Source: Candidatus Pacearchaeota archaeon | Lineage (GTDB): Archaea > Nanobdellota > Nanobdellia > Pacearchaeales > GW2011-AR1 | DNA length: 34,685 nt | Direction: 5' to 3' | NCBI GenBank assembly: GCA_017609695.1 | Contig: JAFCDM010000001.1 | Span: 1 to 34,685, forward strand | In this document: positions 4,256 to 34,685 of the stretch, in pieces | Position numbering within the stretch: position 1 is the stretch's first letter | How the letters are laid out: each line of letters begins with the position of its first letter | Position numbers and translations under genes: made by a program | The notes under the pieces: model-generated | What the model was told of the DNA's origin: nothing | Database searches by the model: none | Seen by the model: only the letters and a program-made list of their open reading frames with translations

Positions 4256-4751
4256 AAAAAGAATTTAATTTAAGTGAAGAAATGTTTGAGATAATAAAAA
4301 AAGTTTCTCAAAGAGAAATGATGCTTACACAATGGATGAATCAGATGGAGAACAATGTAATTTGTTTAACTAAAATTGTTGGAGGTAAAAAAAGATGATT
4401 GTAGAAGTTTCAATTGGAATTGCAAATTTAATCTTGCTAATTCTAATCATTTATCAAATAGTAAAAATCAGGAGAGATAAATGATGGTCTTAGACAAAAG
4501 TTTTAATGTATTAAAAGGAGGTAGCGTAGCGATAAGATGAGAAATATTATCAAGATTGGAAAAAACAATGAAAGAAATAACTAAACAACTAAACTTAATT
4601 AAGAAAAAGTGGGGAGTTGATGCTTTTGATGATATAACTAAATTTATTTTTAAACTTTATAGAAAGATAGAAGATTTAACAATATCAAGAAATAAATGGA
4701 AAAAGAAATATGAAAAACTGCATAAGAAATAAAGGTAAGAAAGTTTTACAA

Positions 4752-4836: not shown

Positions 4837-4873
4837 CAATAGAAAGTTCGTTGTATATCATATTAAACGAAAT

Positions 4874-4886
4874 AAAGTCCGAGACC
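4874..4886. repeat. Left copy of a 13-bp perfect inverted repeat bracketing the methyltransferase gene
   Basis: aaagtccgagacc (4874-4886) is the exact reverse complement of ggtctcggacttt (5639-5651). This copy lies 14 nt upstream of the ATG at 4901. Confidence 0.85.
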
Positions 4887-4900
4887 TACAAAGCTAAAAA

Positions 4901-5759
4901 ATGCAAACCAATGTAATTTATCAGGAAGATTGTATAGAAGGAATGAAGAAGTTACCAGACAACAGCGTAGATTTAATTATAACAGACCCTCCTTATATGA
5001 TTAGTCAAGCAGGAAAAAAAATCAGCAGAAAATCACTTTCTTCAAAATCTTGGAAAAGAGATATGGATATTAGGTTAGATTTTGGAAAGTGGGATAATTT
5101 TGAAAGCGAAGCTGATTTTTTTAAATTTACAGAGAGTTGGTTTTCAGAATGTGCAAGGGTGCTTAAACCGAAAGGTTGGATTTATATTTTCTTTGATAAA
5201 CAGAAGATTGGATACTTTGATTTATTTTTATCAAAGAAATATGGAATAAAAGGAAGAACTGTTTTTGCTTGGCTCAAATCCAATCCTGTTCCGTCTTTCC
5301 GTAAAGTTAATTGGCTTTCTGCTTTCAGAATTTGTATGGGTTGGTAGTAAAGGGGAGTGTAAACTTAAAAATTTTCTTCAGCAGAAAGAGATGTTTAATT
5401 ATATGATTACTCCAAATAAATCATCTTACGGGAAGACAAAGCACCCAACAGAAAAGCCAGAATTAGTTATTGAAAAGTTTGTGAAAACCAACTCTGTTAA
5501 AGGAGATATTGTGCTTGACCCATTTATGGGGTCTGGAACTCTTGCTGTTGTCTGTAAGAGATTAAATAGAAATTACATTGGTTTTGAGATTAACAAAGAA
5601 TATTATGATGTTGCTATAAGGAGGTTATCACAGGGAACGGTCTCGGACTTTACTCAAAATGCTTCGCATTTTGGTTCTGCTCCGCAGAACTCGTTTAATA
5701 GCGATTTAACGGCTACGGCTTCGCTTACGCCCAAATTCCCTAAGGGGAACTATCGTTAA
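4901..5759 (+). pseudogene. Beta-class (motif IV before motif I) N6-adenine/N4-cytosine DNA methyltransferase, split by a 1-nt frame disruption near 5320-5330
   Basis: ORF 4901-5347 carries VDLIITDPPY (motif IV). ORF 5265-5759, in another frame, carries HPTEKPELVIEKF and DPFMGSGT (motif I). The expected continuous sequence ...NWLSAF/EFVWVGSKG... needs one skipped base after ttc at 5322-5324. The last 40 or so codons run into a non-coding repeat element. Confidence 0.85.
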
Positions 5760-5808
5760 ATCGCAGATATTATGTTCAATAAAATAAATCGGCTTGAGGT
5801 CGTTTAAA
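5633..5808. repeat. GC-rich structured element, copy 1
   Basis: Collinear with 6164-6321. The outer stem pairs gcgatttaacg (5701-5711) with cgttaaatcgc (5754-5764). The inner hairpin pairs ttccc (5736-5740) with gggaa (5745-5749). The element ends at the RBS-like gaggt and the ATG at 5809. Confidence 0.7.
5639..5651. repeat. Right copy of the 13-bp inverted repeat bracketing the methyltransferase gene
   Basis: ggtctcggacttt lies immediately after the last conserved methyltransferase segment (...YYDVAIRRLSQG). Confidence 0.85.
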
Positions 5809-6123
5809 ATGGACATCGCTTTAAATAAAACAGAAATAGAAACAAAAAACATTTTCCTATCATTTGATAGGATAAAAAGCTTTGATGAATTGTTATCTTG
5901 TAAATTGGATGAAGTGGTTTATATGGGTGATTCAGATGAAGAATATCCAAAGCATTTTATCAAAAACCAAAGAATAGAAAAAAAGAAAATGTTTTTTAGC
6001 AAAGCAATATATTTTAAGTTAAACGACATTTTATTAGAACCCACCAAAGTTTATAGAGATAACTTTGAATCTTGTGGTTATGTTTTTTATAAACTGAAAT
6101 TACATTTGGAGGGTTCAACATGA
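5809..6123 (+). CDS. Hypothetical protein (104 aa from ATG 5809)
   Basis: ORF track 5794-6123. I prefer the ATG at 5809, which lies 7 nt after gaggt (5797-5801). I recognise no motif. Confidence 0.5.
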   Translation: MDIALNKTEIETKNIFLSFDRIKSFDELLSCKLDEVVYMGDSDEEYPKHFIKNQRIEKKKMFFSKAIYFKLNDILLEPTKVYRDNFESCGYVFYKLKLHLEGST

Positions 6124-6163
6124 CGCCGATTTATTTTACTCTTTGGGATTTCTGCCTTCGACA

Positions 6164-6321
6164 GAACCGTCTTGCAGACTATCCCTCGTTGCTATCGCAA
6201 GAACATAATATCCGTTTAACGGTTCGCTCCGTTGCACTCGCTCACCCAAATTCGCTTTCAGCGAACTTCGTTAAACTAAATATTAATCGCAATTTCATTT
6301 TCGGCTTACAGGAGGTTTACA
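6164..6321. repeat. GC-rich structured element, copy 2
   Basis: The outer stem pairs gtttaacg (6214-6221) with cgttaaac (6269-6276). The inner hairpin pairs ttcgct (6251-6256) with agcgaa (6260-6265). The element ends at aggaggt and the ATG at 6322. Confidence 0.7.
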
Positions 6322-6639
6322 ATGATAAAAAAGTTTAGAAAAAAACCAGTCGTAATAGAAGCAATACAATGGTGTGGTGATAATTTCCAAGAATTAGAAG
6401 AATTTGGAAGTCAAAGACATATCGTTTCAAATCCAGATGGAACTTTGACTATTGAAACTTTAGAAGGAAATCACACCGCACAAAAAGGCGACTGGATTAT
6501 TAGAGGAGTGCAAGGAGAAGTTTATCCTTGTAAACCAGATATATTTGAACAGACTTATGAAGAAGTCGCCGAAACTGAAACTCAAGCTTCTCCTCCGGAG
6601 AAGTCGTTTAATAAAGGTTATGAGGTAAATCAAAAATGA
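6322..6639 (+). CDS. Small conserved phage-type protein of unknown function
   Basis: Strong RBS (caggaggtttacaATG). The pattern KKPVVIEAIQW...GDWIIRG.QGEVYPCKPDIFEQTYEEV matches, from memory, a small hypothetical protein common in bacteriophage and plasmid genomes. I do not assert a family name. Confidence 0.6.
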   Translation: MIKKFRKKPVVIEAIQWCGDNFQELEEFGSQRHIVSNPDGTLTIETLEGNHTAQKGDWIIRGVQGEVYPCKPDIFEQTYEEVAETETQASPPEKSFNKGYEVNQK

Positions 6640-6704
6640 TTTACCCAAATTCAGTTGGAGATGATTAAAATAAACAAAATAAAACTACTAATTAATAATT
6701 ACAT

Positions 6705-6715
6705 AAATTTATAAA
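6705..6715 (+). promoter_or_regulatory. TATA-box-like element upstream of the RHH gene
   Basis: aaatttataaa lies 22-32 nt upstream of the ATG at 6737, which fits an archaeal-type promoter with a short or absent leader. AT-rich background makes this weak. Confidence 0.3.
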
Positions 6716-6736
6716 CAAAACAAAACAAGAGAAAAT

Positions 6737-6868
6737 ATGATAAAACAAAAATCAGTTGGGATTGAAAGTGAAATAATTAAATTAGTAAAAAAAGAAGCAA
6801 AGAAAAAAAAGAGAAGTGATAGTTATGTTATTAATGAAATATTAAAAAAACATTATAAAATAAAATGA
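6737..6868 (+). CDS. Ribbon-helix-helix (CopG/Arc-like) regulator candidate
   Basis: Hand translation gives 43 aa: MIKQKSVGIESEIIKLVKKEAKKKKRSDSYVINEILKKHYKIK, a strand-helix-helix pattern. It overlaps the downstream surface-protein gene by ATGA. Confidence 0.5.
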   Translation: MIKQKSVGIESEIIKLVKKEAKKKKRSDSYVINEILKKHYKIK

Positions 6869-8298
6869 AAAAATTAATTTTAACATTGGTAGGGTTATTT
6901 TTTATTAGTTTTATCTCTGCAAGTGTTCAACCATCAGCAGATATTTTTATTTCAGGAATACCTGAAGAAATTAATGTTGGAGATTATTTTGATATTTCAA
7001 TAGATGGAGAAAATTTACAAAATGTGTTAAGTTATAGAATAAGTTATCTTTATGATAATGATTATTTAGAAGTTGTTAATTTATTTGTTGATGGAAGTTT
7101 TTTTAATTCTCTTGGAAGTCCAATGCAATTATCTTTTAATCCAAAAGATATTGAAACAACTTCAAATTATGATTCTATTTTTAGTATTTCTAAAACACTT
7201 TCTATTTTAGATAATTCTTATTCAGGTGATGGGGTATTTGGAACAGTTAGATTTAAAGCATTAAAATCAGGAAATACAAATTTACTTTCAGATGAATTAA
7301 ATAATTCTCCATCTTGGTATAGCCAACTATTAGGTAAGGGTTTTTTTAATTCTTTTTTATATACCAATTTATCATTACCAGAATATGAAATAAAGATAAT
7401 TGGAGATGAAAATGAAACAATACCAGAAGATAATATCTGTATTCCAAATTGGGTTTTAAATACATCTGAACAATATGATGAAGGAATGATAATAAGAAAT
7501 TGGTTTGATTTAAATTATTGTAATTTAACATCACCAGAACCAATAATAGAATATGTAAATTTAACAATACAAGATAACCAAACAATAAATCAAAATGGTG
7601 TTGGAATAAAATTTGAAGTTCAAAATGAACAAGAAGGAAAAGTTCAAATAAAGAAAACAACTCAAAACAATATAAAAGAAATTGAAAGTAAAAAATTAAT
7701 ATTAATTTTAAATATAACATCAGATATTATTTTTGACAACGCTAAAATTTCTGTTCCCTATGATGAAAACGACCTTAATGGATTAGATGAAAGCACATTA
7801 AGATTTTATTACTTTAATGAATTATTAGAAGAATGGGAAGTTTTACCAACAGAATTAGACACAGTAAATAATTTAATTACTGGTTTAACAACCCACTTTT
7901 CAATTTTTGGAATATTTGGAGAAGAACTTGAAGAACCATCCACCCCAATACCTACAAGTCCAAGTAGGAATTCAAGACACCATTCAAGTTCTTCTTCTAT
8001 AACTTCAATTATAGATAATTCAGAACCAGTTGAAAAAATATGTGGTGAGTGGAAAGTTAAATGTGAAGAAAATAAATTGTATGAATGCTTAGGAAATTCT
8101 TGGATATTTAAAAAAGATTGTGAAAATGGTTGTGAGAATAATTCTTGTAAGATTATTTTAGAACCAAAAGAAACAAAACAAAATATTTTTCAAGAATATA
8201 AGGGTGTTTGGATTGTTGTTTTAATTTTAGTTATTTTAATTATTATTGGAACAATTATTGGAGTTAAGAGAACAAACAAAATTCAGAAAGTTAATTAA
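6865..8298 (+). CDS. Secreted, C-terminally TM-anchored surface protein with a cohesin-like N-terminal domain
   Basis: Sec-type signal (MKKLILTLVGLFFISFISAS). The cohesin-like signature is ...YDNDYLEVVNL...GDGVFGTVRFKALKSGNTNL. A Ser-rich linker, a 6-Cys module (CGEWKVKCEENKLYECLGNSWIFKKDCENGCENNSC) and a terminal TM helix plus basic tail follow. Confidence 0.75.
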   Translation: MKKLILTLVGLFFISFISASVQPSADIFISGIPEEINVGDYFDISIDGENLQNVLSYRISYLYDNDYLEVVNLFVDGSFFNSLGSPMQLSFNPKDIETTSNYDSIFSISKTLSILDNSYSGDGVFGTVRFKALKSGNTNLLSDELNNSPSWYSQLLGKGFFNSFLYTNLSLPEYEIKIIGDENETIPEDNICIPNWVLNTSEQYDEGMIIRNWFDLNYCNLTSPEPIIEYVNLTIQDNQTINQNGVGIKFEVQNEQEGKVQIKKTTQNNIKEIESKKLILILNITSDIIFDNAKISVPYDENDLNGLDESTLRFYYFNELLEEWEVLPTELDTVNNLITGLTTHFSIFGIFGEELEEPSTPIPTSPSRNSRHHSSSSSITSIIDNSEPVEKICGEWKVKCEENKLYECLGNSWIFKKDCENGCENNSCKIILEPKETKQNIFQEYKGVWIVVLILVILIIIGTIIGVKRTNKIQKVN

Positions 8299-11531: not shown

Positions 11532-11570
11532 GGTTACACAAGGGTAATCCTAATTATATAATATGTGCCC

Positions 11571-11645
11571 TAAGGTACCCTAAGTGAACGATAACTAAGG
11601 TACCCTAAGTGAACGATAACTAAGGTACCCTAAGTGAACGATAAC
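11571..11645. repeat. Three perfect tandem copies of a 25-bp unit (taaggtaccctaagtgaacgataac); iteron or operator candidate
   Basis: Units at 11571-11595, 11596-11620 and 11621-11645 are identical. The sub-repeat ccctaag also occurs at 11568. The array is GC-richer than its surroundings and lies 58 nt upstream of the wHTH gene at 11703. Confidence 0.95.
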
Positions 11646-11702
11646 TAGTAACATATTTTCACACCTTAAAAGGGGACTTTTCCATACACTCAAAAAAACA
11701 AA

Positions 11703-12014
11703 ATGGTAAAAAAAGATTTAAAAGATATAAAATTTTTAAAAATATTGAAAATTCTTTATTTAGAAGGAAAACCAATGAGTTATAAACAACTTTCAAAAAT
11801 AACAGGGTATAGTAAATCAACAATTTATAAGTCTCTTTTATATTTAAAAAGAAGGTATTTAATAAAAAAGGAAGAAATAACATATCCTTCAATGAATGAT
11901 AAAAAGACAGGTAGATTTATAAAAGGTCACACTGGAAGAAAAAAAGGGTTTTTATATTGTATAAATGAAAATTCAATAGAGAATATAAAAAAAACGGTGG
12001 ATTGTTTAGGATGA
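11703..12014 (+). CDS. Winged-helix (MarR/ArsR-like) DNA-binding protein
   Basis: ILKILYLEGKPMSYKQLSKITGYSKSTIYKSLLYLKRRYLIKKEE is a textbook HTH plus wing arrangement. Confidence 0.6.
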   Translation: MVKKDLKDIKFLKILKILYLEGKPMSYKQLSKITGYSKSTIYKSLLYLKRRYLIKKEEITYPSMNDKKTGRFIKGHTGRKKGFLYCINENSIENIKKTVDCLG

Positions 12015-20131: not shown

Positions 20132-21952
20132 ATGAATAAAAAAGAAAAAAAAATAATAAGTGGAATTAGTTTAATTTTAATATTTGGAATGTTTCTTATT
20201 AGTTCTAATGGTTTTTATTTTCCTTTTGCATCAGGTGATTTTATAAATGGGGTTTCCGATTTATCAATTTTAAGCATAAGCCAAGTAACTCTTAATGGAG
20301 AACCAGCAATAAGAATTTATGCAACTGCAAATGGTGGTGCAGAAGTTTTAGATATTGATTGGGGGACTTCAGAAATAAACTCAAAATTGAGAGAGGGGGG
20401 TTCTGATTTGATTGCAACAGAAAGTATTCGTGGAGGAATTCAAGTTGGAAGGCAAACATTAGAATTTCCTTATGCTTCAACTGGAGAGACCATTCACAGA
20501 AGTGTAAAACAAATAAGTATAGGCACATTTGTTTCTTGTAACTATGAAAATTGTAAAAATTCTGCTGGAAGTGGTGATGTTTTAGATTGGATGAGACCAG
20601 GATTGTCTTGTCAATGTCTAATAGGTCTTGAAAAAGCAGATGTTGGAAAATGGAGTAGTATTACAAAAGGAAATTATCCAGTAACATTTTATATTGATGG
20701 TTTAGGTAGTACGACTTTTGATAGAGATTCTATGACTAAATATTTGAATGATGAAACACTTGGAAATAATGCTAAAATTCAATTTGAGGGGTTTTTAGAT
20801 TCATATGATAGTGTTGGAGAACCTTCTTACACACCTTATTTATACTTAAATCAAATTCAACTACTAGAACCGACTTCTTTTGCACTAATAACAAGTGCAA
20901 AGAGAAACCTTTTAGATTCTTTTGGTTATTGGGATGTTAATACTTATAATTCAATATTAAATGATATTTTTATTGATAAATATTCCCAGTATTCTAGAGA
21001 AAGTTATATTTATTCTTCTTCAAGGGATGTTTCTGGGATTAAAATTACGTTAGATAAACCAATTAGTTATCCAACATTTACAATAACCCTTAATGCAGAA
21101 AGCGTTGGAATAATAGAGCAATCAGGACAACCAGATAATTTGTATTGTGAAGACACTAAATTTAAAGCAAATGAGTTGGGAGAAACAACTTGTTCTGTTA
21201 GAAATTCTGGGGGTGCTGGTTCTTTTTCAGTAGATTTAACTAATTGTGGAACCTCAGCATTTGTAATTGGAGGAAATAATTTAGGGGGATTTGATGTTGG
21301 AGAAGAAGATACTTTTAAAATAAATTTACAGGGAACAACAGATAATGAAAATGGAGAAGAGGGGAATTGTAGAGTTAAAGTTTATGATTTGAATGACCCT
21401 TCTAAATATGACACTTTTACTTTTGGATATTTTATAGAATATAATCCTGGAGGAAAGTGTAGTCCAATTGGAAAATTAATTTGTGATGAACAACTAAAAA
21501 ATATCCTTGAGTGTAAATCATCTGGAACTTATGAGTTAAAAGAGAGTTGTGATGAAATTTGCTCTTATGGAACAAACGGGGTTGCGTTTTGTTCTATAGA
21601 AGATGAGGATGGTTGTAAATGGTATGATTTGGGTTGTTATTTTTTGAAATTTTTTGGTTCAATTAAAAACGTTTTTTCAGATTTATTCTCTGGGGTATTT
21701 AGTATTTTTAAATTTTTAAAATATGCAATAGTTTTTGTAGCATCATTACTTTCCATGTTTTTAACAAATGATTTTTCAAAGAGTATAAAAACTTTAAAAC
21801 AAAATAAGTGGTTAAGAATCACTTTTAGCATAATAATTGGATTGTTTATTAGTATTTTTTTATATTTATTCATCGGAAGTTTTTTATTTTGGGTTTTTGG
21901 TATTGCTTTGATAGTCTTTATCTTTTTAATTAAAATGGTGAAACCAATATAA
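20132..21952 (+). CDS. Large Cys-containing ectodomain protein with an N-terminal anchor/signal and about 3 C-terminal TM helices
   Basis: 606 aa. The N-terminal hydrophobic segment is IISGISLILIFGMFLISS. The ectodomain of about 480 aa has many Cys, including a 6-Cys module (CSPIGKLICDEQLKNILECKSSGTYELKESCDEICSYGTNGVAFC). The C-terminal hydrophobic segments are YAIVFVASLLSMFL, ITFSIIIGLFISIFLYLFIG and FLFWVFGIALIVFIFLI. Confidence 0.7.
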   Translation: MNKKEKKIISGISLILIFGMFLISSNGFYFPFASGDFINGVSDLSILSISQVTLNGEPAIRIYATANGGAEVLDIDWGTSEINSKLREGGSDLIATESIRGGIQVGRQTLEFPYASTGETIHRSVKQISIGTFVSCNYENCKNSAGSGDVLDWMRPGLSCQCLIGLEKADVGKWSSITKGNYPVTFYIDGLGSTTFDRDSMTKYLNDETLGNNAKIQFEGFLDSYDSVGEPSYTPYLYLNQIQLLEPTSFALITSAKRNLLDSFGYWDVNTYNSILNDIFIDKYSQYSRESYIYSSSRDVSGIKITLDKPISYPTFTITLNAESVGIIEQSGQPDNLYCEDTKFKANELGETTCSVRNSGGAGSFSVDLTNCGTSAFVIGGNNLGGFDVGEEDTFKINLQGTTDNENGEEGNCRVKVYDLNDPSKYDTFTFGYFIEYNPGGKCSPIGKLICDEQLKNILECKSSGTYELKESCDEICSYGTNGVAFCSIEDEDGCKWYDLGCYFLKFFGSIKNVFSDLFSGVFSIFKFLKYAIVFVASLLSMFLTNDFSKSIKTLKQNKWLRITFSIIIGLFISIFLYLFIGSFLFWVFGIALIVFIFLIKMVKPI

Positions 21953-25010: not shown

Positions 25011-25057
25011 CAATCCCCTATAAATTTGATTGGTTATGTTACAAAACTAAGAGGATA

Positions 25058-25135
25058 ATGGATAAAAAAGCACAAATTAAACTTTTTATAATTGGAATTT
25101 TACTTTTATTAGTTTTAAGTGTTTTTGTTCTTGCA
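25058..25135 (+). repeat. 78-nt leader-peptide repeat, copy 1
   Basis: atggataaaaaagcacaaattaaac...gtttttgttcttgca is identical to 27426-27503. Confidence 0.95.
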
Positions 25136-27433
25136 ATAACAATAGAAATTGTAGAATCTGGGGAAAATATTGGGGGACATTCTTCAATAGCAATGAATTC
25201 TGACGATATTATACATATGGTTCATCGTAATATGGATAACGGAGATTTAAGGTATTGTAATAATTCTGGAGGTTCGTGGAGTTGTATAAATTTAACATCT
25301 GGTATTGATATGAGAAACCCATCTATTGCAATAGATTCTAAAGGTGTGTTAAATATTATGGTTTATAATTTTGAAGCATCGCAATTAAATTATTTAAATA
25401 ACTCTGGTGGCTCTTGGAATGGATATGTTGTTTTAAATGTAAATTCTCCAAATCCATCTATAGCAATAGATTCAAACGATGTTGTACATTTTTCTTTTTT
25501 TCTTGAATCATCAACTGATTTAATGTATGGTAATAACTCTGGTGGCTCTTGGAGTTTTGAAAATATAGATGATGCTGGTAGTGTTGGAAATTATCCATCT
25601 ATGGCAATAGATTCAACTGACACAATCCATATCTCACACTACAAAGATGATTCTGGAGATTTAAGGTATTGTAATAATTCTGGAGGTTCGTGGAGTTGTG
25701 TCTCTGTAGAAACAGATAATGATGTTGGGAGATATTCTTCTCTTACAATAGGTTTGGATAATGTAGTACATATCTCTGGATATGATGCAACAAATGGAGA
25801 TTTAAGGTATTGTAATAATTCTGGAGGTTCGTGGAGTTGTGTCCCTGTTGATACTGAAGGAAATACTGGTGTTTATTCATCAATAGATTCTGGTATAGAT
25901 AATATAATTAGTATAGTAAGTTTTGATTCTGATGAAAATAATACAAGGTATTGTAATAATTCTGGAGGTTCGTGGAGTTGTTATAACCTTTTTAGTGTTG
26001 GAACAGACCCAACATTTGGGTCACCATCAAATAGGTGGATGGCTATAAAAAAAGGAAGGGTCTCTGGAATTTCAAACTTTTCAAGTTATGCACATATGGG
26101 ATTTTATAATACTTCTATTAATTTTTTTTATGCAAAAGAAAAAGTAACGCCTCTTGGTGTGTTGATAACCTATCCTTCTAATGATAGTTATGGAATAAAT
26201 GTGATGGAACTAAATTATACTCTAAATAATGTTGATTGTGATTCTGTTTGGTATTCTTTAGATTTAGGTGTAACAAATTCTTCAAGACAAGATTGTGGAT
26301 TAAACTGGACAAGTATGAATTATAGTCAAGAAGATAATTTTATAAAAATTTATTCAAATGATACAGATGGATTAGTTTATGATTCTTCCACTACTTTTTA
26401 TATTGATTCAATACCCCCAGATATAAATATAACTTCTATAACAACTGTAAACTCTTCACAGACATTTACTTTTAATTCAACAACATCTGATGTTAATTTA
26501 GATTCTTGTAAATATACAATATTCAATTCAAGTGGTGATGTAGATGTTGAAAATACTACATTTACATGTAATGTTGTAGAACAATCTGCAACAGTTACTT
26601 TGTCTGGAACAAATGAATTTAATTTAACAATTTATTCTTCCGATATTTTTGGGAATGAAAATAGTTCAACACTTAACTTTTCTATAATTTTTGGTGTTGA
26701 AGGTTATTCTGATTCAAGTGGAGGAGGTGTAGGAGGAACTACAGAACCACAAAGAACAGAAACAGTTTGTATGGTTAGGAATTTTAATATAACAGGAATT
26801 GAAGAATTACAAAGATGTATAATTTATGCAAGAATTAAAGAGGTGTGTGTAAAAGATATTTGTTCATTGAATTTAGAGAAAAAAAACGAGATTATAAAAA
26901 ACTTAAATGAGCAAGAAGTAACTTTAAATTCTCAACAATTAGAACTTTTTTTAAATTCATATAATAATAAAGAAATTGAAGCAATAAAAATTTTAGATTC
27001 AGATATAGAAAAGTATTCTTTATTTACAGGAATAATTCAGGGAGTTTCTTTTGATATTGTTTCTGGGATAACAGATAAGTATTTTATTGCATTAACAAAT
27101 TATACAGAATATTTTGCATTTTCAAATAGAGAATTAGTTTCTTGTGAAGTTGTTGATGGAGATGTAGGATTTTCTTGTTTAGCGAAGAATACTACTGCAA
27201 AAATTTCTTATTCTTTAATTGGAGATTTAGATTATACATTTAAGACAGTAGAATCTACTATTTCTTTTGTTGATATAGATAATAATAGTGTTTTCAAAAA
27301 AGTAAGAATACGGGTTGTAAGACCAACAATTCAATTATTAATTTTAGTTGGTTCAATTGCATTAATTTCTGGATTGTGGGTATTTAATAAAAAAAGAATA
27401 ATTAAATATTTTAATAAATTGAAAAATGGATAA
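25058..27433 (+). CDS. Giant surface protein: six-bladed beta-propeller, two Ig-like domains, Gly-rich linker, Cys-containing C-terminal domain and TM anchor
   Basis: The leader is MDKKAQIKLFIIGILLLLVLSVFVLA. Six repeats of about 45 aa each carry NNSGGSW plus an xSSIAIDSxxxxH-like strand. The Ig-like domains contain CDSVWYSLDLGVTNSSRQDCGLNWT and DSCKYTIFNSSG...FGNENSS. The linker is SSGGGVGGTT and the terminal TM is LLILVGSIALISGLWVF. Confidence 0.8.
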   Translation: MDKKAQIKLFIIGILLLLVLSVFVLAITIEIVESGENIGGHSSIAMNSDDIIHMVHRNMDNGDLRYCNNSGGSWSCINLTSGIDMRNPSIAIDSKGVLNIMVYNFEASQLNYLNNSGGSWNGYVVLNVNSPNPSIAIDSNDVVHFSFFLESSTDLMYGNNSGGSWSFENIDDAGSVGNYPSMAIDSTDTIHISHYKDDSGDLRYCNNSGGSWSCVSVETDNDVGRYSSLTIGLDNVVHISGYDATNGDLRYCNNSGGSWSCVPVDTEGNTGVYSSIDSGIDNIISIVSFDSDENNTRYCNNSGGSWSCYNLFSVGTDPTFGSPSNRWMAIKKGRVSGISNFSSYAHMGFYNTSINFFYAKEKVTPLGVLITYPSNDSYGINVMELNYTLNNVDCDSVWYSLDLGVTNSSRQDCGLNWTSMNYSQEDNFIKIYSNDTDGLVYDSSTTFYIDSIPPDINITSITTVNSSQTFTFNSTTSDVNLDSCKYTIFNSSGDVDVENTTFTCNVVEQSATVTLSGTNEFNLTIYSSDIFGNENSSTLNFSIIFGVEGYSDSSGGGVGGTTEPQRTETVCMVRNFNITGIEELQRCIIYARIKEVCVKDICSLNLEKKNEIIKNLNEQEVTLNSQQLELFLNSYNNKEIEAIKILDSDIEKYSLFTGIIQGVSFDIVSGITDKYFIALTNYTEYFAFSNRELVSCEVVDGDVGFSCLAKNTTAKISYSLIGDLDYTFKTVESTISFVDIDNNSVFKKVRIRVVRPTIQLLILVGSIALISGLWVFNKKRIIKYFNKLKNG
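26237..26310 (+). repeat. Third, partial copy of the cassette core
   Basis: tgtgattctgtttggtattctttagatttaggtgtaacaaattcttcaagacaagattgtggattaaactggac is identical to the matching segments in 29331-29527 and 31254-31441. Confidence 0.9.
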
Positions 27434-27503
27434 AAAAGCACAAATTAAACTTTTTATAATTGGAATTTTACTTTTATTAGTTTTAAGTGTTTTTGTTCTT
27501 GCA
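27426..27503 (+). repeat. 78-nt leader-peptide repeat, copy 2
   Basis: Identical to 25058-25135. Identity starts 2 nt before the ATG and ends at the predicted signal-peptide end (VLA). Confidence 0.95.
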
Positions 27504-29177
27504 GGAGATTTAATTTCTTCTAATAATCTAAAAACATATAATGATTCAAAAAATGAATTTACAATTAAAAATAAAGATAGTAATTTAATTATTCAAGCAC
27601 AAAGATTAACTCCACAAAATAATTATATTATTGATGTTGGAAAGGGTGTTTTACAAGTAGTAGCAAAATATAATCTTTCTGATTTTGATAAAACTAAAAA
27701 AAATGTTTTTACTAAAACAGAATTTTATAATTTAAATAAAAAGATGAAAAAAGAAGAAAGATATTTTGAATGGAGATGGAAAAATACTTCTTCACATTTG
27801 GAAACAAATTATAGGAGAGATTGTTCAACAGAACTTGTTTGGAATGATGTAAATAAAACAAACGATGAAGTTGAAACTTGTGTTTTAGTTGAAGATGGAA
27901 AAAAAGAAGTTTATGATTATGAATGGATTAAATTTACAGAATTAAGTGAAATAGAAAAAGGTGTTGAAGTTGGTTTGTTTGTTGATGTTTTACGAGGAGA
28001 ACATATTGAGTATATTCCAACATTTGCAGGAGTAGAAATAACAGAAGATGCTGAATGGACAGAAAGTTTAAATGTGGGATTAGTAAGTTATTGGGCTCAC
28101 GAAGATGCAAGTGGAGCTACTTTAACAGATAATGTTTCATCAAATGATGGGGTTATAGATGGTGCTGATTGGTCTGCGTCAGGTTTAAATGGATATGCTT
28201 TATATTATGTTTCTGCTAATACAGATTATACAAAAATAGATGAAAGTGTAAGCATTTATAATTCAGATACTTATTCAATTTTTCTTTGGGTAAATTCTGA
28301 TTCAAATACAGAAAGTTCTATACTTTGTGCAAGATGGGGTGATGGTTCAGGCGATAGTAATCATCTTGCAACAAGAGCTGATGGAGGATATTATTGGGTA
28401 GTAGATACAGGTCTTGGACCAAAAGTAGTAGAACCAGTTCCCGATTTAATCCCAAGTGCAGGAGACTGGCACTCTTTTGCAATGGTTTATAATGGAGTAA
28501 ATGCAACACTTTATTATGATGGTGTTGAACAAAATGATGCAGAAGCAACAACAGGAGCATTTTCAACAACAAGACCAATAGTATTTGGTGCTTATGATGA
28601 CCTAACTGGTGGTTGGTTAAATGGATTAATTGATGAAGTTGGGTGGTGGAATAGAACTTTATCACTTTCTGAAATAGAACAATTAAATAATAGAATAACT
28701 TGGACTGATGAATTTGGAGATTCAACCCCCCCTTCAGTAACAATAAATACCCCAACTAACACAACCTACACCACAAATACAATAAACTTTAATGCAACTG
28801 CAACAGACAATATAGAAATTGATTCTTGTCTTTATTCTTTAAATTCAGGAGTTACAAACTACACATTAACAAATGAAACATCTGTTGATGATTATTATGG
28901 AACAAATACAACTATGGCTCAAGGTTCTCATATAGTTAATTTTTATTGTAATGATACATCTAATAATCTAAATGATTCAGAGAGTATTACTTTTTATATT
29001 GATTCAATAAATCCATCAGCAACAACAAACACACCAGAAAATAACACTTATTCAAATTCAGACCAAAATTACACAGCAAACCTAACAGATAATTTAGGAA
29101 TAAAGAATTCAACTTTATATATTTATAATGAAACTGGAATTGAAAACCAAACAACAACCAATGTATTGTTAGTTTAA
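27426..29177 (+). CDS. Surface protein with a LamG (concanavalin-A-like lectin) domain and Ig-like repeats; probably the 5' part of a split gene continuing at 29186
   Basis: It has the same 26-aa leader as 25058. The LamG signature is LVSYWAHEDASGATLTDNVSSNDGVIDGADW...WHSFAMVYNGVNATLYYDGV...GLIDEVGWWNRTLSLSEIEQL. The ORF ends inside an Ig-like domain and has no C-terminal TM anchor. Confidence 0.75.
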   Translation: MDKKAQIKLFIIGILLLLVLSVFVLAGDLISSNNLKTYNDSKNEFTIKNKDSNLIIQAQRLTPQNNYIIDVGKGVLQVVAKYNLSDFDKTKKNVFTKTEFYNLNKKMKKEERYFEWRWKNTSSHLETNYRRDCSTELVWNDVNKTNDEVETCVLVEDGKKEVYDYEWIKFTELSEIEKGVEVGLFVDVLRGEHIEYIPTFAGVEITEDAEWTESLNVGLVSYWAHEDASGATLTDNVSSNDGVIDGADWSASGLNGYALYYVSANTDYTKIDESVSIYNSDTYSIFLWVNSDSNTESSILCARWGDGSGDSNHLATRADGGYYWVVDTGLGPKVVEPVPDLIPSAGDWHSFAMVYNGVNATLYYDGVEQNDAEATTGAFSTTRPIVFGAYDDLTGGWLNGLIDEVGWWNRTLSLSEIEQLNNRITWTDEFGDSTPPSVTINTPTNTTYTTNTINFNATATDNIEIDSCLYSLNSGVTNYTLTNETSVDDYYGTNTTMAQGSHIVNFYCNDTSNNLNDSESITFYIDSINPSATTNTPENNTYSNSDQNYTANLTDNLGIKNSTLYIYNETGIENQTTTNVLLV

Positions 29178-29527
29178 TAGATGGAGTGAAAACTTGGTTT
29201 TATGATGTTTTTGATTGGGCAGGAAATTCAGATATTTCAGAGAACTACACAATTACTATTGATACTATTAATTCAGATGTAGCAATAACTTACCCAACAA
29301 ACACTTCTTACACCTCAACCCAATCAATTTTAAATTATACCTATTCAGAAGAAAATTGTGATTCTGTTTGGTATTCTTTAGATTTAGGTGTAACAAATTC
29401 TTCAAGACAAGATTGTGGATTAAACTGGACTGGTTTAAGTTCTTTAAGTTCTTCTGAAGGTTCAAATACTTGGACAGTTTATATAAATGATTCAGCAGGA
29501 AATGAAAATAGTTCAAGTGTTACTTTT
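29009..29527 (+). repeat. About 0.5-kb cassette, copy A (spans the 27426/29186 gene break)
   Basis: 29009-29163 equals 30988-31142 with 1 mismatch. 29220-29272 equals 31143-31195 with 1 mismatch. 29331-29527 equals 31254-31441 except for a 9-nt indel. 29164-29219 (56 nt) is absent from copy B. 29273-29330 is diverged. Confidence 0.9.
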
Positions 29528-32479
29528 CTTGTTGCTACAACACCTCCAACCTGTGTTTTACTTGAACGAAGTATTACAGATATTAAAGAAAATTCAACTG
29601 GAATTTATGAAGTAATCGCTAATTGTTCATCACCTTACGAGTTGAATGGTTCAAGTGCATTATCTATGTACACTATTGAGGGGGTTCTTTCTCCAGGAAT
29701 TCCAAATTATTGGAGTATTAGACCACCAGAGAATGATAAAGCAGAATCAAATTTTTATTTTTCAGGAGAACAGATTTTTGTAGCAGATGGTAGAGCAGAT
29801 AATAGGTGGTATGATAATTATTATATTGATGGAGATAAATTATTTGATGATAATTTTACTTATTCTGTTCAAGATAACTCAAGTATTTATTTTTCAATTA
29901 CAGAAGAAAACTCAACACAATTTATTCTTAATTTTTCAAGAAATGTTGAAACAACATTTAGAAATATTATTTATTTAAGGAGAGGAAATCTAGAAAGAGA
30001 ATACAAGGCAGAGCAAAATTACGAAATTTATGACAATAATCCCATTTTAATTAAAATATGGAATTTAGATGCAGAAAGAGAGCATAAAAATTATACTATT
30101 AACATCTTTAGAAACATAAATTATTCTGGGAATCCAAATAAAAATTTAAATGCTTACATTTGTAATAGTTCGTATATTTTTAATGGGGGAACATCTCCAA
30201 AAGATGATTTAGATAATTGTGTTTTAATTAACAGTTTAGATAAAACAGAATTAGACAACATTTATTATTCTTCAAAAAATAGTACTTATTCAAAGGGGGT
30301 ATTTTCTTCTATTAATGGAATTTTAGGGGGTGTATATTTAACAAATTATACTTATCTTTATTATGAAAGTAATACACAATATGGTGCTGGTTTTTATAAT
30401 TTAAGATTTGCAAATGGTTCAAGTGGAACTAATGTAAGTTTTTTAGAATCTAATGTTTCGTGGAGTTCAACAGATGGGGGGGTGAATTTTGTAGATAATC
30501 CATTTACTCCAGATATTTGGTTTTCTGGAATTGCTGAAGGAGACGAACTTAATTTTGGTATAAATATTCAAGATATTTATGGAAATAATTTTACAAATTT
30601 CTCTTTTATCCACGATGATATAGGAGATGTTAATCATCCTATTACAAATCCAACTATTCTTTTCCTTAATAGTTCAATAAATACAAAGGATGATGATTTA
30701 AATAAAATTCATAAAGGATTAATGCAAATTTTAGTTGGTGTTTCCAAAGACCCAGATTCAGTTGGAAATGTAACTCATAATTTAACTTTACATAATCCTG
30801 ATGGAAGTTTAAATTACACAATTAATGCAAGTTTTTTAAGTGCAGATGATTCAGATGTTTGGAAAGATTTTGATACTTCTTTAGTTGCAGATGGAACTTA
30901 TAAAATTAATGTAACTGCATATTCTGGAGATAATTTTAATGATATTAAATCTTTTATGCAAGAAGATAATTTTACAATAGATAATACAAATCCATCAGCA
31001 ACAACAAACACACCAGAAAATAACACCTATTCAAATTCAGACCAAAATTACACAGCAAACCTAACAGATAATTTAGGAATAAAGAATTCAACTTTATATA
31101 TTTATAATGAAACTGGAATTGAAAACCAAACAACAACCAATGCAGGAAATTCAGATATTTCAGAGAACTACACAATTACTATTGATACTATCAATCCTAA
31201 TTTAAATTTAACTTATCCCTTGAATATTTCTTATTCAACAAGTGTTTCTAGAATAAATTATACCTATTCAGAAGAAAATTGTGATTCTGTTTGGTATTCT
31301 TTAGATTTAGGTGTAACAAATTCTTCAAGACAAGATTGTGGATTAAACTGGACTGGTTTAAGTTCTTCTGAAGGTTCAAATACTTGGACAGTTTATATAA
31401 ATGATTCAGCAGGAAATGAAAATAGTTCAAGTGTTACTTTTACTTCAATAGCAACTGCACCAAATGTAATATTATTAAATCCCCCAAATAATGCTTATGA
31501 TGGGGATACTATTTTAGAATTCCAGTATTATGTTACAAGTAGCACAACAATTTCAAATTGTTCTATTTATTTTGATAATAATGTTTTACAAACAACACAA
31601 TCTCCAATAACAAACGGGACAATAAATAATTATTATGTTGATTTTGATTCAACAAGTATTTATCTTAAAGATAACTTAAATTGGTTTGTAAATTGCACAG
31701 ATATAAATAATAAAGAAAATTCTTCTGATGTGTGGGTTGTTGATACATTAGAAGGGGGTTCTGGTTCAAGTGGTGGAGGTGGAGGAGGAACTTATGTGGA
31801 ATTAGAAGTTAATGAATTAGTTTGTAATCAAACCTATTATTATATTTTAAATAATGAAGAAAATTTAACAAGTTTAGTTGAAAAGGTAAATGCTTATTCA
31901 GAATCTTTATTAAGTCGTTATTATTTAGGAAATGTTATAACAAATTGGCAAAATGTTTGTTCAAATAAAATAAATAGAACATTAAAACCAGAGTTTGTTT
32001 GTGAAAAAATATTTTATTATTTAATAGATGAAAATAAAACAGAAGAAGATTTAAATATTTTAAAATCATCAATTAATGATGAAATTTTGTTTTCAGATGG
32101 TTTGTTAGCATATTATTCCGATAATTATAATTCAGTGTGTTATGGGGAGGGGTATTCTGATGCAATTCCAACACGGAATACCCTATCAATAATTCCAATA
32201 ATTTTTAGTGGAGAAATAAATAAATGTAATGAAACCATTGGAATAGATTTTTTTGATTATAGTCTTGATTTTTTCAAAGATGGAATATCTGTTGGAAACC
32301 TCTCTTGTGAATCAACAGATTTTTGGAGGTATATTGTTTCTATCAAAAGAAATGAATCAAATAATACAAAAATAGTTGGTATAAAAATATGGCATATCTT
32401 TTCAATACTTTTTTTAATTTTGTCAATTTATGGAATTAAGGTGTTAAGGAAAGTGAATAAAAAATTAGATGGAATTTAA
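29186..32479 (+). CDS. Giant surface protein (3' part of the split gene): Ig-like repeats, large central domain, Gly-rich linker, Cys-containing domain and TM anchor
   Basis: It has no signal peptide and a GTG pseudo-start. The frame is open from 29144. It begins mid-domain (GVKTWFYDVFDWAGNSDISENYTITIDTIN). The linker is GGSGSSGGGGGGT and the terminal TM is IWHIFSILFLILSIYGI. The C-terminal architecture parallels 25058-27433. Confidence 0.75.
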   Translation: MKTWFYDVFDWAGNSDISENYTITIDTINSDVAITYPTNTSYTSTQSILNYTYSEENCDSVWYSLDLGVTNSSRQDCGLNWTGLSSLSSSEGSNTWTVYINDSAGNENSSSVTFLVATTPPTCVLLERSITDIKENSTGIYEVIANCSSPYELNGSSALSMYTIEGVLSPGIPNYWSIRPPENDKAESNFYFSGEQIFVADGRADNRWYDNYYIDGDKLFDDNFTYSVQDNSSIYFSITEENSTQFILNFSRNVETTFRNIIYLRRGNLEREYKAEQNYEIYDNNPILIKIWNLDAEREHKNYTINIFRNINYSGNPNKNLNAYICNSSYIFNGGTSPKDDLDNCVLINSLDKTELDNIYYSSKNSTYSKGVFSSINGILGGVYLTNYTYLYYESNTQYGAGFYNLRFANGSSGTNVSFLESNVSWSSTDGGVNFVDNPFTPDIWFSGIAEGDELNFGINIQDIYGNNFTNFSFIHDDIGDVNHPITNPTILFLNSSINTKDDDLNKIHKGLMQILVGVSKDPDSVGNVTHNLTLHNPDGSLNYTINASFLSADDSDVWKDFDTSLVADGTYKINVTAYSGDNFNDIKSFMQEDNFTIDNTNPSATTNTPENNTYSNSDQNYTANLTDNLGIKNSTLYIYNETGIENQTTTNAGNSDISENYTITIDTINPNLNLTYPLNISYSTSVSRINYTYSEENCDSVWYSLDLGVTNSSRQDCGLNWTGLSSSEGSNTWTVYINDSAGNENSSSVTFTSIATAPNVILLNPPNNAYDGDTILEFQYYVTSSTTISNCSIYFDNNVLQTTQSPITNGTINNYYVDFDSTSIYLKDNLNWFVNCTDINNKENSSDVWVVDTLEGGSGSSGGGGGGTYVELEVNELVCNQTYYYILNNEENLTSLVEKVNAYSESLLSRYYLGNVITNWQNVCSNKINRTLKPEFVCEKIFYYLIDENKTEEDLNILKSSINDEILFSDGLLAYYSDNYNSVCYGEGYSDAIPTRNTLSIIPIIFSGEINKCNETIGIDFFDYSLDFFKDGISVGNLSCESTDFWRYIVSIKRNESNNTKIVGIKIWHIFSILFLILSIYGIKVLRKVNKKLDGI
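30988..31441 (+). repeat. About 0.5-kb cassette, copy B (internal to 29186-32479)
   Basis: See copy A. This copy reads through in frame (…ENQTTTN-AGNSDISENY…). Confidence 0.9.
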
Positions 32480-34283: not shown

Positions 34284-34581
34284 AATTTTTTTTCTTTGAT
34301 TTGTTTTTTAATTCTTTAATTAATTGGTATGCTTCTTGTTTGGTTAAATCTTCTTTTATTTTTATTCCTTCTTTTGATAACCTCCAAATTTGGCTTTTTG
34401 TGGCTAATTTATCTATATTTGGTTTTTCATTATCTAACATACCATCTTCTTCATAATTAACAAAAGCAATCCAATTTTTTTCAATATAAAATATTTGTGT
34501 AGAGATATAATTCTTTAATTTATTTATTTCTTCCACTATTTGTTTTTCACTTCTTTTTTTAAAAACTTTTATTTTTTTCAT
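34273..34581 (-). CDS. Hypothetical protein (102 aa)
   Basis: ATG ORF coupled by ATGA to the 34-codon ORF inside the inverted repeat, and overlapping the primase start. I recognise no motif. Confidence 0.55.
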   Translation of the reverse strand: MKKIKVFKKRSEKQIVEEINKLKNYISTQIFYIEKNWIAFVNYEEDGMLDNEKPNIDKLATKSQIWRLSKEGIKIKEDLTKQEAYQLIKELKNKSKKKNFDY

Positions 34582-34682
34582 TTTATTTCTCTTTCTGCAA
34601 GTTTTAAATTTATTTTCTTTTTTTTAATTTCTTCTTCTGAAATCCAATCAATTAAATCTTGAGCATTTATTTCTTCTTTCAT
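34578..34682 (-). CDS. 34-codon ORF inside the right inverted-repeat arm (duplicate of the N-terminus of 260-472)
   Basis: Translation is MKEEINAQDLIDWISEEEIKKKKINLKLAEREIK*. The stop falls exactly at the repeat boundary. It may serve only as a translational coupling leader. Confidence 0.35.
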   Translation of the reverse strand: MKEEINAQDLIDWISEEEIKKKKINLKLAEREIK

Positions 34683-34685
34683 ATA
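34581..34685. repeat. Right arm of the 105-bp perfect inverted repeat, truncated by the window end
   Basis: Same comparison as the left arm. This arm ends exactly at the last base of the window, so the repeat may continue as the inverted copy of 1-256. Confidence 0.95.

Follow-up and report, generated by a model that had tools for sequence, protein, structure and literature searches.

The Vibrio cholerae repeats (VCRs) are about 125 nt long, are highly conserved within their arrays and end in a branched variable tip. In T4-type phages, the promoter-early stem-loops (PeSLs) are reportedly mobile regulatory cassettes, an account said to go back to Arbiol et al. in 2010. Integrons were reported in Archaea in 2022, in nine phyla and for the most part as integrase-free clusters (Ghaly et al., 2022; PMC9668308), and an operational criterion for them is at least two sites <4 kb apart, in the same orientation and separating short open reading frames (ORFs) (PMC9668308). 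In this study, we analyzed a 34,685-nt stretch of DNA from a Candidatus Pacearchaeota archaeon (assembly GCA_017609695.1, contig JAFCDM010000001.1, positions 1 to 34,685), hereafter the window, in which a sequence-only reading had drawn attention to a repeated structured element at 5633-5808 and 6164-6321. The element is probably a recombination site resembling the attC sites of integrons, and such sites would bound three tandem mobile cassettes, carrying a DNA methylase, ORF104 and ORF105 (4862-6652), on an archaeal virus- or plasmid-like element. The sites of the window, and those of the arrays found elsewhere, lie in the same orientation, mostly at spacings below the 4 kb used for integrons.

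Structured repeats in the window

The coordinates and sequences of both copies were all reproduced, by direct reading and by a script check. The outer stem of copy 1 pairs GCGATTTAACG (5701-5711) with CGTTAAATCGC (5754-5764) over 11 bp, and that of copy 2 pairs GTTTAACG (6214-6221) with CGTTAAAC (6269-6276) over 8 bp; the base-pair swap on which the sequence-only reading had relied, A5704-T5761 in copy 1 for G6214-C6276 in copy 2, was recovered. The inner hairpin is TTCCC-TAAG-GGGAA (5736-5749) in copy 1 and TTCGCT-TTC-AGCGAA (6251-6265) in copy 2. The core motif CCCAAATTC, for which a third occurrence had been noted, has exactly three occurrences in the window (5730, 6245 and 6644), and all of them read on the + strand. 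Local alignment agreed that copies 1 and 2 are diverged homologues (z about 6), the Smith-Waterman score being 31 (dinucleotide shuffles 17.4 +/- 2.3, 0/500 as high), while copy 1 scored 37 against copy 3 (shuffles 17.9 +/- 2.5, again 0/500 as high). When folding energies were compared with those of shuffled sequences, copy 1 was well below them (z = -3.4) and copy 2 alone was not (z = -0.9). The two-copy repeat is retained, with a unit larger than originally drawn and with a truncated third copy at 6568-6652. The statement that each copy abuts a gene start was not upheld, as the gene-adjoining piece is part of the next cassette and lies outside the site.

A check on coding capacity, also proposed beforehand, showed that the copies are not coding. 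The reading frame of CCCAAATTC differs between copies (PKF in copy 1, HPNS in copy 2); copy 1 is read through by the tail of the methylase ORF, as had been seen, and the Pfam methylase domain already ends at about 5619; and ORF105 homologues cease matching at residue 80-84, the last 20 codons (6575-6639) being derived from the site. The coding hypothesis was dropped on these grounds, with conserved blocks in different frames and homologues lacking the tails, a site-encoded tail being present in one (P0098) of 23 methylase homologues inspected. The tails of the methylase and of ORF105 exist because the gene frames run on into site DNA, and the 72-aa ORF at 6120-6338, which had been judged implausible, is likewise spurious read-through of the site.

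Relatives and covariation

Metagenomes and genomes were searched with the pattern CCCAAATTC-N6-20-GAACT-N0-4-CGTTAAA. The pattern yielded 69 metagenome loci, about 50 of them true in that the whole architecture is common to them, and 23 genome loci, 11 of them true. Ten of these 11 are archaeal metagenome-assembled genomes, assigned to Aenigmatarchaeota, Nanohalarchaeota (2), Altiarchaeia/Altiarchaeales (2), Woesearchaeota, Pacearchaeota, Thermoplasmatales, a Euryarchaeota archaeon and an uncultured archaeon, and the eleventh locus is a 4-kb contig binned as Patescibacteria. Genomes that carry arrays include Altiarchaeales IMC4 (MCBF01000001.1) and a 137-kb Altiarchaeia contig (JBAQYF010000019.1). 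The earlier advice to look elsewhere for copies of the kind left by miniature inverted-repeat transposable elements (MITEs) was productive, since the metagenome and genome scans gave about 100 homologues. A covariance model, R1, was built from 29 sequences and run on 479 kb of fetched loci, which carry labels such as L190 and L254; it gave 101 matches in them.

Other collections gave none. In IMG/VR viral contigs, the pattern TTTAACGG..CCCAAATTC had 98 matches, all by chance, and a stricter pattern had 0, and no ORF104 relatives were found there. Nhmmer found no element at 80 loci of ORF105 relatives on viral contigs, an annotated phage collection was matched only by the ORF105 gene, an annotated plasmid collection was not matched, and five loci of methylase homologues, used as a route to longer arrays, contained no element.

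The relatives keep the stem nnnnTTTAACG / CGTTAAAnnnn, whose outer four pairs covary freely (AGGA/TCCT, GCGA/TCGC, CGTG/CACG, GAAA/TTTC and GGGG/CCCC), together with a variable hairpin closed by GG..CC, the CAAA junction, a second hairpin TTC-nnnn-loop-nnnn-GAA and then CTT. Selection on stem pairing was confirmed in the R1 alignment of 95 distinct homologues, in which 92% of cells are paired vs. 68% in shuffles, and 403 cells show double changes where shuffles predict 107, figures that are somewhat inflated because the alignment was fitted to the model, although the raw sequences show the same covariation by eye. Changes on both sides were found in 19/20 pairs (10/11 within the L stem), and in slid controls, with partners moved by 1-3 columns, pairing was at most 54%.

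The wobble statistics point to DNA rather than RNA. Among 1815 pair cells, the non-Watson-Crick cells of the top strand comprised 39 G.T/T.G and 54 A.C/C.A; because an RNA of the gene strand would show G.U far above A.C, no RNA signature is present. An A.C on the top strand corresponds to a wobble pair when the opposite strand is read, and the conserved A.C beside S0, a cassette-specific box described below, is a G.T on the bottom strand.

Site layout and cassette boundaries

An outer inverted pair flanks the outer stem, with R′′ one base upstream and R′ 2-4 bases downstream, and the family consensus of 90-96 sites is R-Y-W-T-A-A-Y for R′′ and R-T-T-A-W-R-Y for R′. To judge by its sequence, the stem first described is the inner L box of a putative integron-attC-like site. 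On the gene strand, a site begins with S0′′ (10-16 nt, cassette-specific), ACTC, one or two hairpins, R′′ (RYWTAAY) and a 1-nt spacer, and continues with L′′ (nnnnTTTAACG), P2, CAAA, P3, CTT, L′ (CGTTAAAnnnn) and a 2-4-nt spacer, in which P2-CAAA-P3-CTT is predicted as a three-way-junction tip. Beyond the predicted crossover point follow R′ (RTTAWRY), N-M-AAT and the S0′ of the next cassette.

Near-identical elements match up to ...GATATTA and then diverge wholly, which pointed to a fixed boundary. If strands were exchanged at the first base of R′, the R′ after site n should complement the R′′ of site n+1. In 23 of the 36 non-redundant neighboring pairs, R′(n) complemented R′′(n+1) at all 7/7 positions, compared with 2.5 on average and at most 9 in a permutation control of 5000 trials, and it matched its own R′′(n) perfectly in only 3/36. 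The last R′′ base is C at 45 and T at 42 sites, and the first R′ base is G at 57 and A at 40.

A second pairing rule concerns S0. The segment just after R′-N-M-AAT, S0′, exactly complements a second one, S0′′, which precedes the R′′ of that cassette by 19-90 nt. Perfect complementarity over 8 nt or more joins the two in 22 of 38 cassettes, whereas non-cognate controls averaged 1.0 and never exceeded 4. The sequence of S0 differs in every cassette, and its flanks are kept, (C/A)AAT before S0′ and ACTC or ACTT after S0′′. Since the S0 ends bracket the gene in an array, S0 would close the whole site in an excised circle.

Both rules were followed by the cassettes of the window. The S0 boxes pair at 14/14 positions in the methylase cassette (S0′ TAAAGTCCGAGACC, 4873-4886, with S0′′ 5639-5652), at 13/13 in the ORF104 cassette (5780-5792 with CCGATTTATTTTA, 6126-6138) and at 12/13 in the ORF105 cassette (6293-6305 with 6568-6580). 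The extended R box of the methylase cassette, ATTAAACGA (4862-4870), is the exact reverse complement of 5691-5699, and that of the ORF104 cassette, ATTATGTTC (5769-5777), of GAACATAAT (6201-6209), in both cases 9/9, while the R box of ORF105 pairs at 6/9. For folding with DNA parameters, each site was joined to its own cassette start (161-nt and 186-nt sequences), and the junction was predicted to form one continuous structure of S0, hairpins, R, L and three-way tip. The methylase junction gave -48/-49 kcal/mol for the top/bottom strand vs. -29 in the array form, and the ORF104 junction -38/-43 vs. -21 to -26, the reconstituted junctions being about 17-20 kcal/mol better than the array forms and the bottom strand 1-5 kcal/mol more stable.

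The same cassette occurs in two contexts. At locus L190, the methylase cassette is present at 93% identity, the identity starting at ATTAAACG (ATTAAAC) and ending at ...GATATT, with unrelated flanks and with an upstream site that differs from that of the window. The changes between the window and L190 in S0 (T/C with A/G), the L box (GCGA/TCGC to GGGG/CCCC), Pa and P3 are all compensatory. At L187, by contrast, the site is 92-95% identical to copy 2 and is accompanied by another gene and another S0. Systematic pair comparison bracketed the exchange point at -4 to +3 around the first base of R′, which fits A|TT or G|TT.

Arrays and cargo

The R1 matches group together on one strand of a contig, at distances of 0.25-5 kb and mostly of 0.4-1.3 kb. 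The arrays comprise five sites in L234, four each in L252 and L200, three each in L198, L232, L254, L249 and L188, and two in the window. One or two genes lie between sites, the longest ORF being co-oriented with the site in 30/39 cassettes and opposite in 9/39. The cargo sampled includes C5 and N6/N4 DNA methylases, an McrB-like AAA_5 ATPase with a partner gene, MNT/Polbeta nucleotidyltransferase, Schlafen AlbA_2, Fic, APH, S-adenosylmethionine (SAM) methyltransferases, an AbrB-like/ParE pair and a CPBP protease, and these families overlap those enriched in archaeal integron cassettes (PMC9668308, Data S7). Chromosomal arrays were found after an enolase gene (L198) and beside transporter genes in the 137-kb Altiarchaeia contig (L254). 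Two-gene systems also lie within one site pair, an AbrB-like antitoxin with a ParE toxin in L254 (5446-5957) and the McrB-like AAA_5 gene with its partner in L198 (2419-6211, - strand); since such whole systems are bounded by a single site pair, cassettes can reach 4-5 kb.

The cassette array of the window

All features of the array are on the + strand. Its left edge is a putative remnant of an upstream site with a degenerate 3′ part (4843-4861; AAAGTTCGTTGTATATCAT, compare GAACTTCGTTAAAnnnn plus spacer), which was retained, as a remnant only, because a textbook cassette start follows it. Cassette 1 (4862-5768) carries an N6/N4 DNA methylase gene (4901-5759; Pfam PF01555) and ends in copy 1, a site at 5639-5768 that R1 scores at 63.5 bits (E = 3e-13). 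After S0′′, this site consists of ACTC (5652-5655), hairpins Pa (5655-5673) and Pb (5674-5690), R′′ (TC)GTTTAAT (5691-5699), spacer A (5700), L′′ (5701-5711), P2 (5712-5731), CCCAAATTC (5730-5738), P3 (5736-5749), CTAT (5750-5753), L′ (5754-5764) and spacer AGAT (5765-5768). One extra T in a T run near 5323-5330 causes a +1 frameshift that splits the methylase into two ORFs, while the L190 orthologue is intact; the gene could be a pseudogene or contain a slippery phase-variable tract, or the split could be a sequencing error.

Cassette 2 (5769-6281) carries ORF104, with its ATG at 5809 and stop at 6123, which belongs to no known family and had no Pfam or PHROG match. Its start includes TCAAT (5776-5780), and its site, copy 2 (6126-6281; R1 70.7 bits, E = 5e-15), comprises S0′′, ACTC (6138-6141), a 5′ hairpin domain (6142-6200), R′′ (GA)ACATAAT (6201-6209), spacer A (6210), L′′ (6211-6221), P2 (6222-6246), CCCAAATTC (6245-6253), P3 (6251-6265), CTT (6266-6268), L′ (6269-6279) and spacer AT (6280-6281).

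Cassette 3 (6282 to about 6652) starts with R′ ATTAATC (6282-6288) and carries ORF105 (6322-6639), a member of the phrog_419 family, whose function is not known, and a truncated terminal site, copy 3. This copy retains S0′′, ACTC (6580-6583), Pb (6587-6603), R′′ (TC)GTTTAAT (6604-6612), a degenerate L′′ (6614-6624), P2 (6624-6645) and CCCAAATTC (6644-6652), after which P3, L′ and R′ are missing. The ORF105 region 6322-6574 has 72-75% nucleotide identity to genes of Staphylococcus, Clostridium, Enterococcus and Streptococcus phages, and on this sequence likeness ORF105 may be a gene from bacterial phages that an archaeal-type cassette carries as cargo.

The two full sites are 510 nt apart on the same strand, with the truncated third beyond them, and their R′′/R′ boxes are GTTTAAT/ATTAAAC and ACATAAT/ATTATGT. 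The R′′-R′ spans are 83 nt (5693-5775) and 86 nt (6203-6288), and the full structures with S0 measure 160-185 nt. The GC content of 4862-6652 is 34% vs. 25.8% for the rest of the window.

Proposed mechanism and candidate enzyme

In the mechanism that we propose, the site would act as single-stranded DNA (ssDNA), probably as the bottom strand, whose R and L boxes would fold into a stem and offer two half-sites. A tyrosine recombinase of the IntI/Xer kind would act on this R/L stem and would cleave at the first base of R′, that is, at A|TT in the window and at G|TT in about half of the relatives. By exchange between two sites, a cassette would leave as a circle or enter. In the circle, R′/R′′ and S0′/S0′′ of the same cassette are expected to pair perfectly and to clamp the site. 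The predicted circular junctions are ...CGTTAAATCGCAGAT|ATTAAACGAAATAAAGTCC for the methylase cassette and ...CGTTAAACTAAAT|ATTATGTTCAATAAAATAAATCGG for the ORF104 cassette, and the predicted empty site after methylase excision is ...GTTGTATATCAT|ATTATGTTCAAT.

In Pyrococcus abyssi, the dif site has ATTGGATATAA as its left arm (PMC2958812). The cassette-start 11-mer TTAWRYNMAAT, counted from the second R′ base, agreed with the reverse complement of this arm at a mean of 7.7/11 positions, and 38% of the elements matched it at 9/11 or better vs. 0.055% of background 11-mers. L′′ carries a similar motif (e.g. AGGATTTAA), and one half-site is thus repeated, in the same direction, as L′ and R′. By analogy, the dif-like 11-mer fits an Xer/IntI-type recombinase that would cleave between the first and second R′ bases, and it does not separate IntI from XerA; a classical IntI acting in trans and the hijacking of XerA are both possible.

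That the sites are hijacked XerA substrates with no dedicated integrase, as in integrative mobile elements exploiting Xer (IMEX) or in pdif modules, would compete only on the enzyme and leave the cassette model untouched. The resemblance of the cassette-start 11-mer and of L′′ to an archaeal dif arm speaks for it, as does the cleavage point, which by the dif analogy falls exactly between the first and second R′ bases; the likeness is short and AT-rich, however, and the sites of IntI and Xer are themselves related. None of the arrays has an IntI nearby, and to our knowledge XerA is present in essentially all archaea, a near-universal presence that would explain the wide taxonomic spread of the sites. 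As a duplex, though, the site has no inverted arm pair around a 6-8-bp center, with L′ and R′ being direct repeats, and on balance we regard XerA hijacking as unlikely, if by no means negligible.

Points against a cassette system

Several findings weigh against the reading of these elements as attC-like sites that bound mobile cassettes. No excised circle or empty site was observed, and the crossover is resolved only to the 7-nt bracket given above. The window encodes no integron integrase or other recombinase, and because of this the cluster is analogous to clusters of attC sites without an integrase (CALIN); nor was a recombinase found in the 5-7 kb around the chromosomal arrays L254 and L198. 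An IntI1 sequence, used only as a probe of the fetched loci, found only two tyrosine recombinases of about 200 aa, homologous to each other and just downstream of sites (L195 3789-4379; L260 2709-3320, - strand), which carry PF00589 alone and are too short for the IntI-type insertion. They were dropped as candidates for the cassette enzyme, since nine further loci of the family, on virus-like contigs, show the same gene order without the element.

The sites themselves also depart from canonical attC. All window sites have an AAT/ATT core, as does about half of the family, where canonical attC has a near-invariant AAC/GTT. The L stems of the window are perfect and lack an extrahelical base, and in one subclass of relatives (e.g. 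L185, L191) the 5′ L arm has one extra base, TTTAA[G/A]CG. The R-L spacers are 1 nt x 2-4 nt against about 5 on each arm of canonical sites. L′ and R′ are direct, not inverted, e.g. CG-TTAAATCC-TGATA-TTAAATCC-AAT, with no inverted arm partner at 6-8 bp. The nine published archaeal attC sites are simple hairpins without CCCAAATTC (PMC9668308), and they align poorly with each other in the L′ region. At the edges of the window array, the upstream remnant scored only 12.8 bits with R1 (E = 1.2) and did not align significantly to copies 1 and 2, and copy 3 scored only 15 bits (E = 0.33).

The short recombinases form a family of their own. This large and well-conserved family of about 195 aa comprises 379 clusters at E <= 1e-10, with PF00589 only and without a homologue in the window. 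In L195, L260 and L277-L285, its genes lie between a methylase-rich accessory block and a reverse-strand block of giant LamG proteins on virus-like contigs, and it is probably the integrase of an uncultivated archaeal virus group.

Transposable elements and structured RNA

A non-autonomous transposable element (a MITE, or one of the IS200/IS605 type) or a repeat for homologous recombination like the PeSLs of T4-type phages would also be multi-copy, palindromic and dispersed over many contigs between small accessory genes, as the element is. Neither mechanism predicts the R′(n)-R′′(n+1) pairing or the cognate S0 pairing, both of which need a fixed crossover. The copies are never solitary with target duplications and always stand at gene 3′ ends in same-strand arrays; no transposase, TnpA or TnpB was found in the loci, whose ORFs were screened only with the tyrosine-recombinase probe and selected Pfam scans, and no conserved promoter of the PeSL kind was found by a sigma-70-type scan, which does not cover archaeal promoters. 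Both explanations are thus very improbable.

An RNA leader, an attenuator or a protein-binding hairpin had been suggested by the sequence-only reading; selection on structure stands, and a protein-binding hairpin is plausible and close to the mark, while the leader and the attenuator do not survive. A structured RNA duplicated before each gene, whether a Shine-Dalgarno-sequestering leader, an attenuator/riboswitch or a 3′ untranslated region stabilizer/terminator, could draw on the folding energy of copy 1 (z = -3.4), a predicted closing stem over the ORF104 Shine-Dalgarno, the co-orientation with genes in 30/39 cassettes and the strong covariation, yet it is already largely refuted and the least credible of the alternatives, as A.C is at least as frequent as G.U, the sequence downstream of otherwise identical sites is unrelated, 9/39 cassettes have their longest ORF on the opposite strand, and Rfam gave no match. 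The Rfam search, which had been recommended, returned nothing at gathering score for the whole window, and for 5400-6900 at E <= 10 only chance matches (E >= 1.8); no tRNA or tmRNA was found in the window, and promoter-like or terminator-like sites showed no enrichment at the elements in the sigma-70-type scan. The closing stem over the Shine-Dalgarno was rejected as a folding artefact across the cassette boundary, the true partner of 5639-5652 being 4873-4886, 750 nt upstream, across the methylase gene.

Other features of the window

Several features make the window look like an archaeal virus- or plasmid-like element. Its GC content is about 26%, its genes lie mostly on the + strand with almost no Pfam or PHROG matches, and they encode, among others, a PrimPol-like protein, a Walker-A ATPase and large secreted proteins in which LamG and Big_13 domains occur. 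A perfect inverted repeat of 105 nt (257-361 and 34581-34685), whose right arm ends at the window end and whose left arm starts 256 nt in, could have arisen in assembly or could form the terminal inverted repeats of a replicon that is linear.

A 606-aa ORF (20132-21952, + strand) matched the NCBIfam model NF053506, fusexin 1 (Fsx1), with E = 1.4e-13 and 50 bits, the curated cut-off being 650; residues 293-593 align to profile positions 284-604, and neither Pfam and PHROG searches nor phmmer against PDB sequences gave a match. Fsx1 is an archaeal HAP2/GCS1-like cell fusogen on archaeal integrated mobile elements (PMC9259645).

Adjacent ORFs of 791 and 583 aa have identical 79-nt 5′ ends (25057-25135, 27425-27503) that encode the same signal/transmembrane segment, the 791-aa ORF contains repeats of 141-nt period (25240-25998), and segments of 130-230 nt (28988-31435) recur between the 583-aa ORF and a 1097-aa ORF; the pattern looks like that of paralogous surface proteins (LamG, Big_13) whose genes recombine. 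A 25-nt unit (CTAAGGTACCCTAAGTGAACGATAA...) is perfectly repeated in three tandem copies at 11570-11647, just upstream of a winged-helix/helix-turn-helix gene (11703-12014), and could form an operator or iteron-like array. An AT-rich hairpin at 4444-4505 (AATCATTTATC / GATAAATGATG) scored 18 bits with the site model (E = 0.05) and is probably unrelated.

Implications

More tentatively, and with the chances somewhat against it, we propose an archaea-wide system of cassette exchange that would parallel integrons and differ in mechanism, with tandem Xer-like half-sites, a three-way tip and a gene-specific clamp. Its enzyme would not be a classical IntI and might be the host XerA acting on folded ssDNA, and it would shuttle defence and anti-defence genes, including the putatively bacterial-phage-derived ORF105, between chromosomes and viruses or plasmids. 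If the sites do bound mobile cassettes, the DPANN archaea, Altiarchaeia, Thermoplasmatales and their mobile elements would share a pool of precisely excisable cassettes, and a concrete route of host-virus gene flow, for methylases, toxin-antitoxins, restriction and defence, would exist in lineages whose mobile-element biology is almost unknown.

For searches, the core TTTAACGG...CCCAAATTC...GAACTTCGTTAAA together with the R′/R′′/S0 pairing rule offers a simple, testable means of finding cassettes and delimiting them to the nucleotide. The site family also explains spurious C-terminal tails and small ORFs produced by gene callers, and the clamp, the AAT/ATT core and the dif-like half-sites could inform work on substrate recognition in structure-specific tyrosine recombination and on the kinship of integron and Xer sites.

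Comparison with known systems

PeSLs are repeated structured intergenic elements that bracket small viral accessory genes and are linked to modular gene shuffling, in which the present elements resemble them. PeSLs, however, work by homologous recombination and carry a promoter, whereas the boundaries here are fixed to a few nucleotides and the sigma-70-type scan, within its bacterial-type scope, gave no promoter.

The exploiters of Xer/dif, such as CTX-phi and other IMEX and the pdif modules of Acinetobacter, use a housekeeping tyrosine recombinase, and their site can form by folding of ssDNA, as in the dif mimic of CTX-phi. Like the cassettes of the window, whose start 11-mers are dif-arm-like, pdif modules are accessory-gene modules bounded by half-site-like 11-mers. 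The present family differs in having no inverted-arm site of 11 + 6 + 11 bp and in its direct rather than alternating orientation, and pdif modules have no hairpin tip. VCRs are likewise a long conserved attC family with a branched tip; unlike the present sites, they are bacterial and linked to IntIA, and they have an AAC/GTT core, extrahelical bases and no gene-flanking clamp.

Integron-type cassettes in bacteriophages are the subject of a report (PMC9892861). Our literature searches found no description of this site family or of integron-type cassettes in archaeal viruses, and the core motifs and the genome contigs of this study are absent from the supplementary tables of PMC9668308; set against those tables and the nine published example sites, the family is apparently undescribed, in that we could not find it described.

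Integrons are the system that the window resembles in most respects. In each, short ORFs stand in tandem and are mostly co-oriented, and behind every ORF comes an imperfect palindrome with R′′/R′ of the RYYYAAC/GTTRRRY type, an inner L′′/L′ stem past an unpaired spacer and a variable tip. In both, the cassette starts with the complement of its own R′′, as expected for a crossover at the first R′ base, and the R′′-R′ spans of 83 and 86 nt lie inside the attC range of 57-141 nt. They further share a cargo of methylase, toxin-antitoxin and restriction genes, an occurrence in DPANN and other archaea, and the frequent absence of a nearby integrase. What sets the present family apart is the conserved three-way tip GG-hairpin-CCCAAATTC-hairpin-GAACTT, the extra 5′ hairpin domain, the cassette-specific S0 clamp, the L′/R′ direct repeats and the location on a virus- or plasmid-like element. 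Finally, whereas attC similarity is reported at the order level (PMC9668308), this family is kept across several archaeal phyla.

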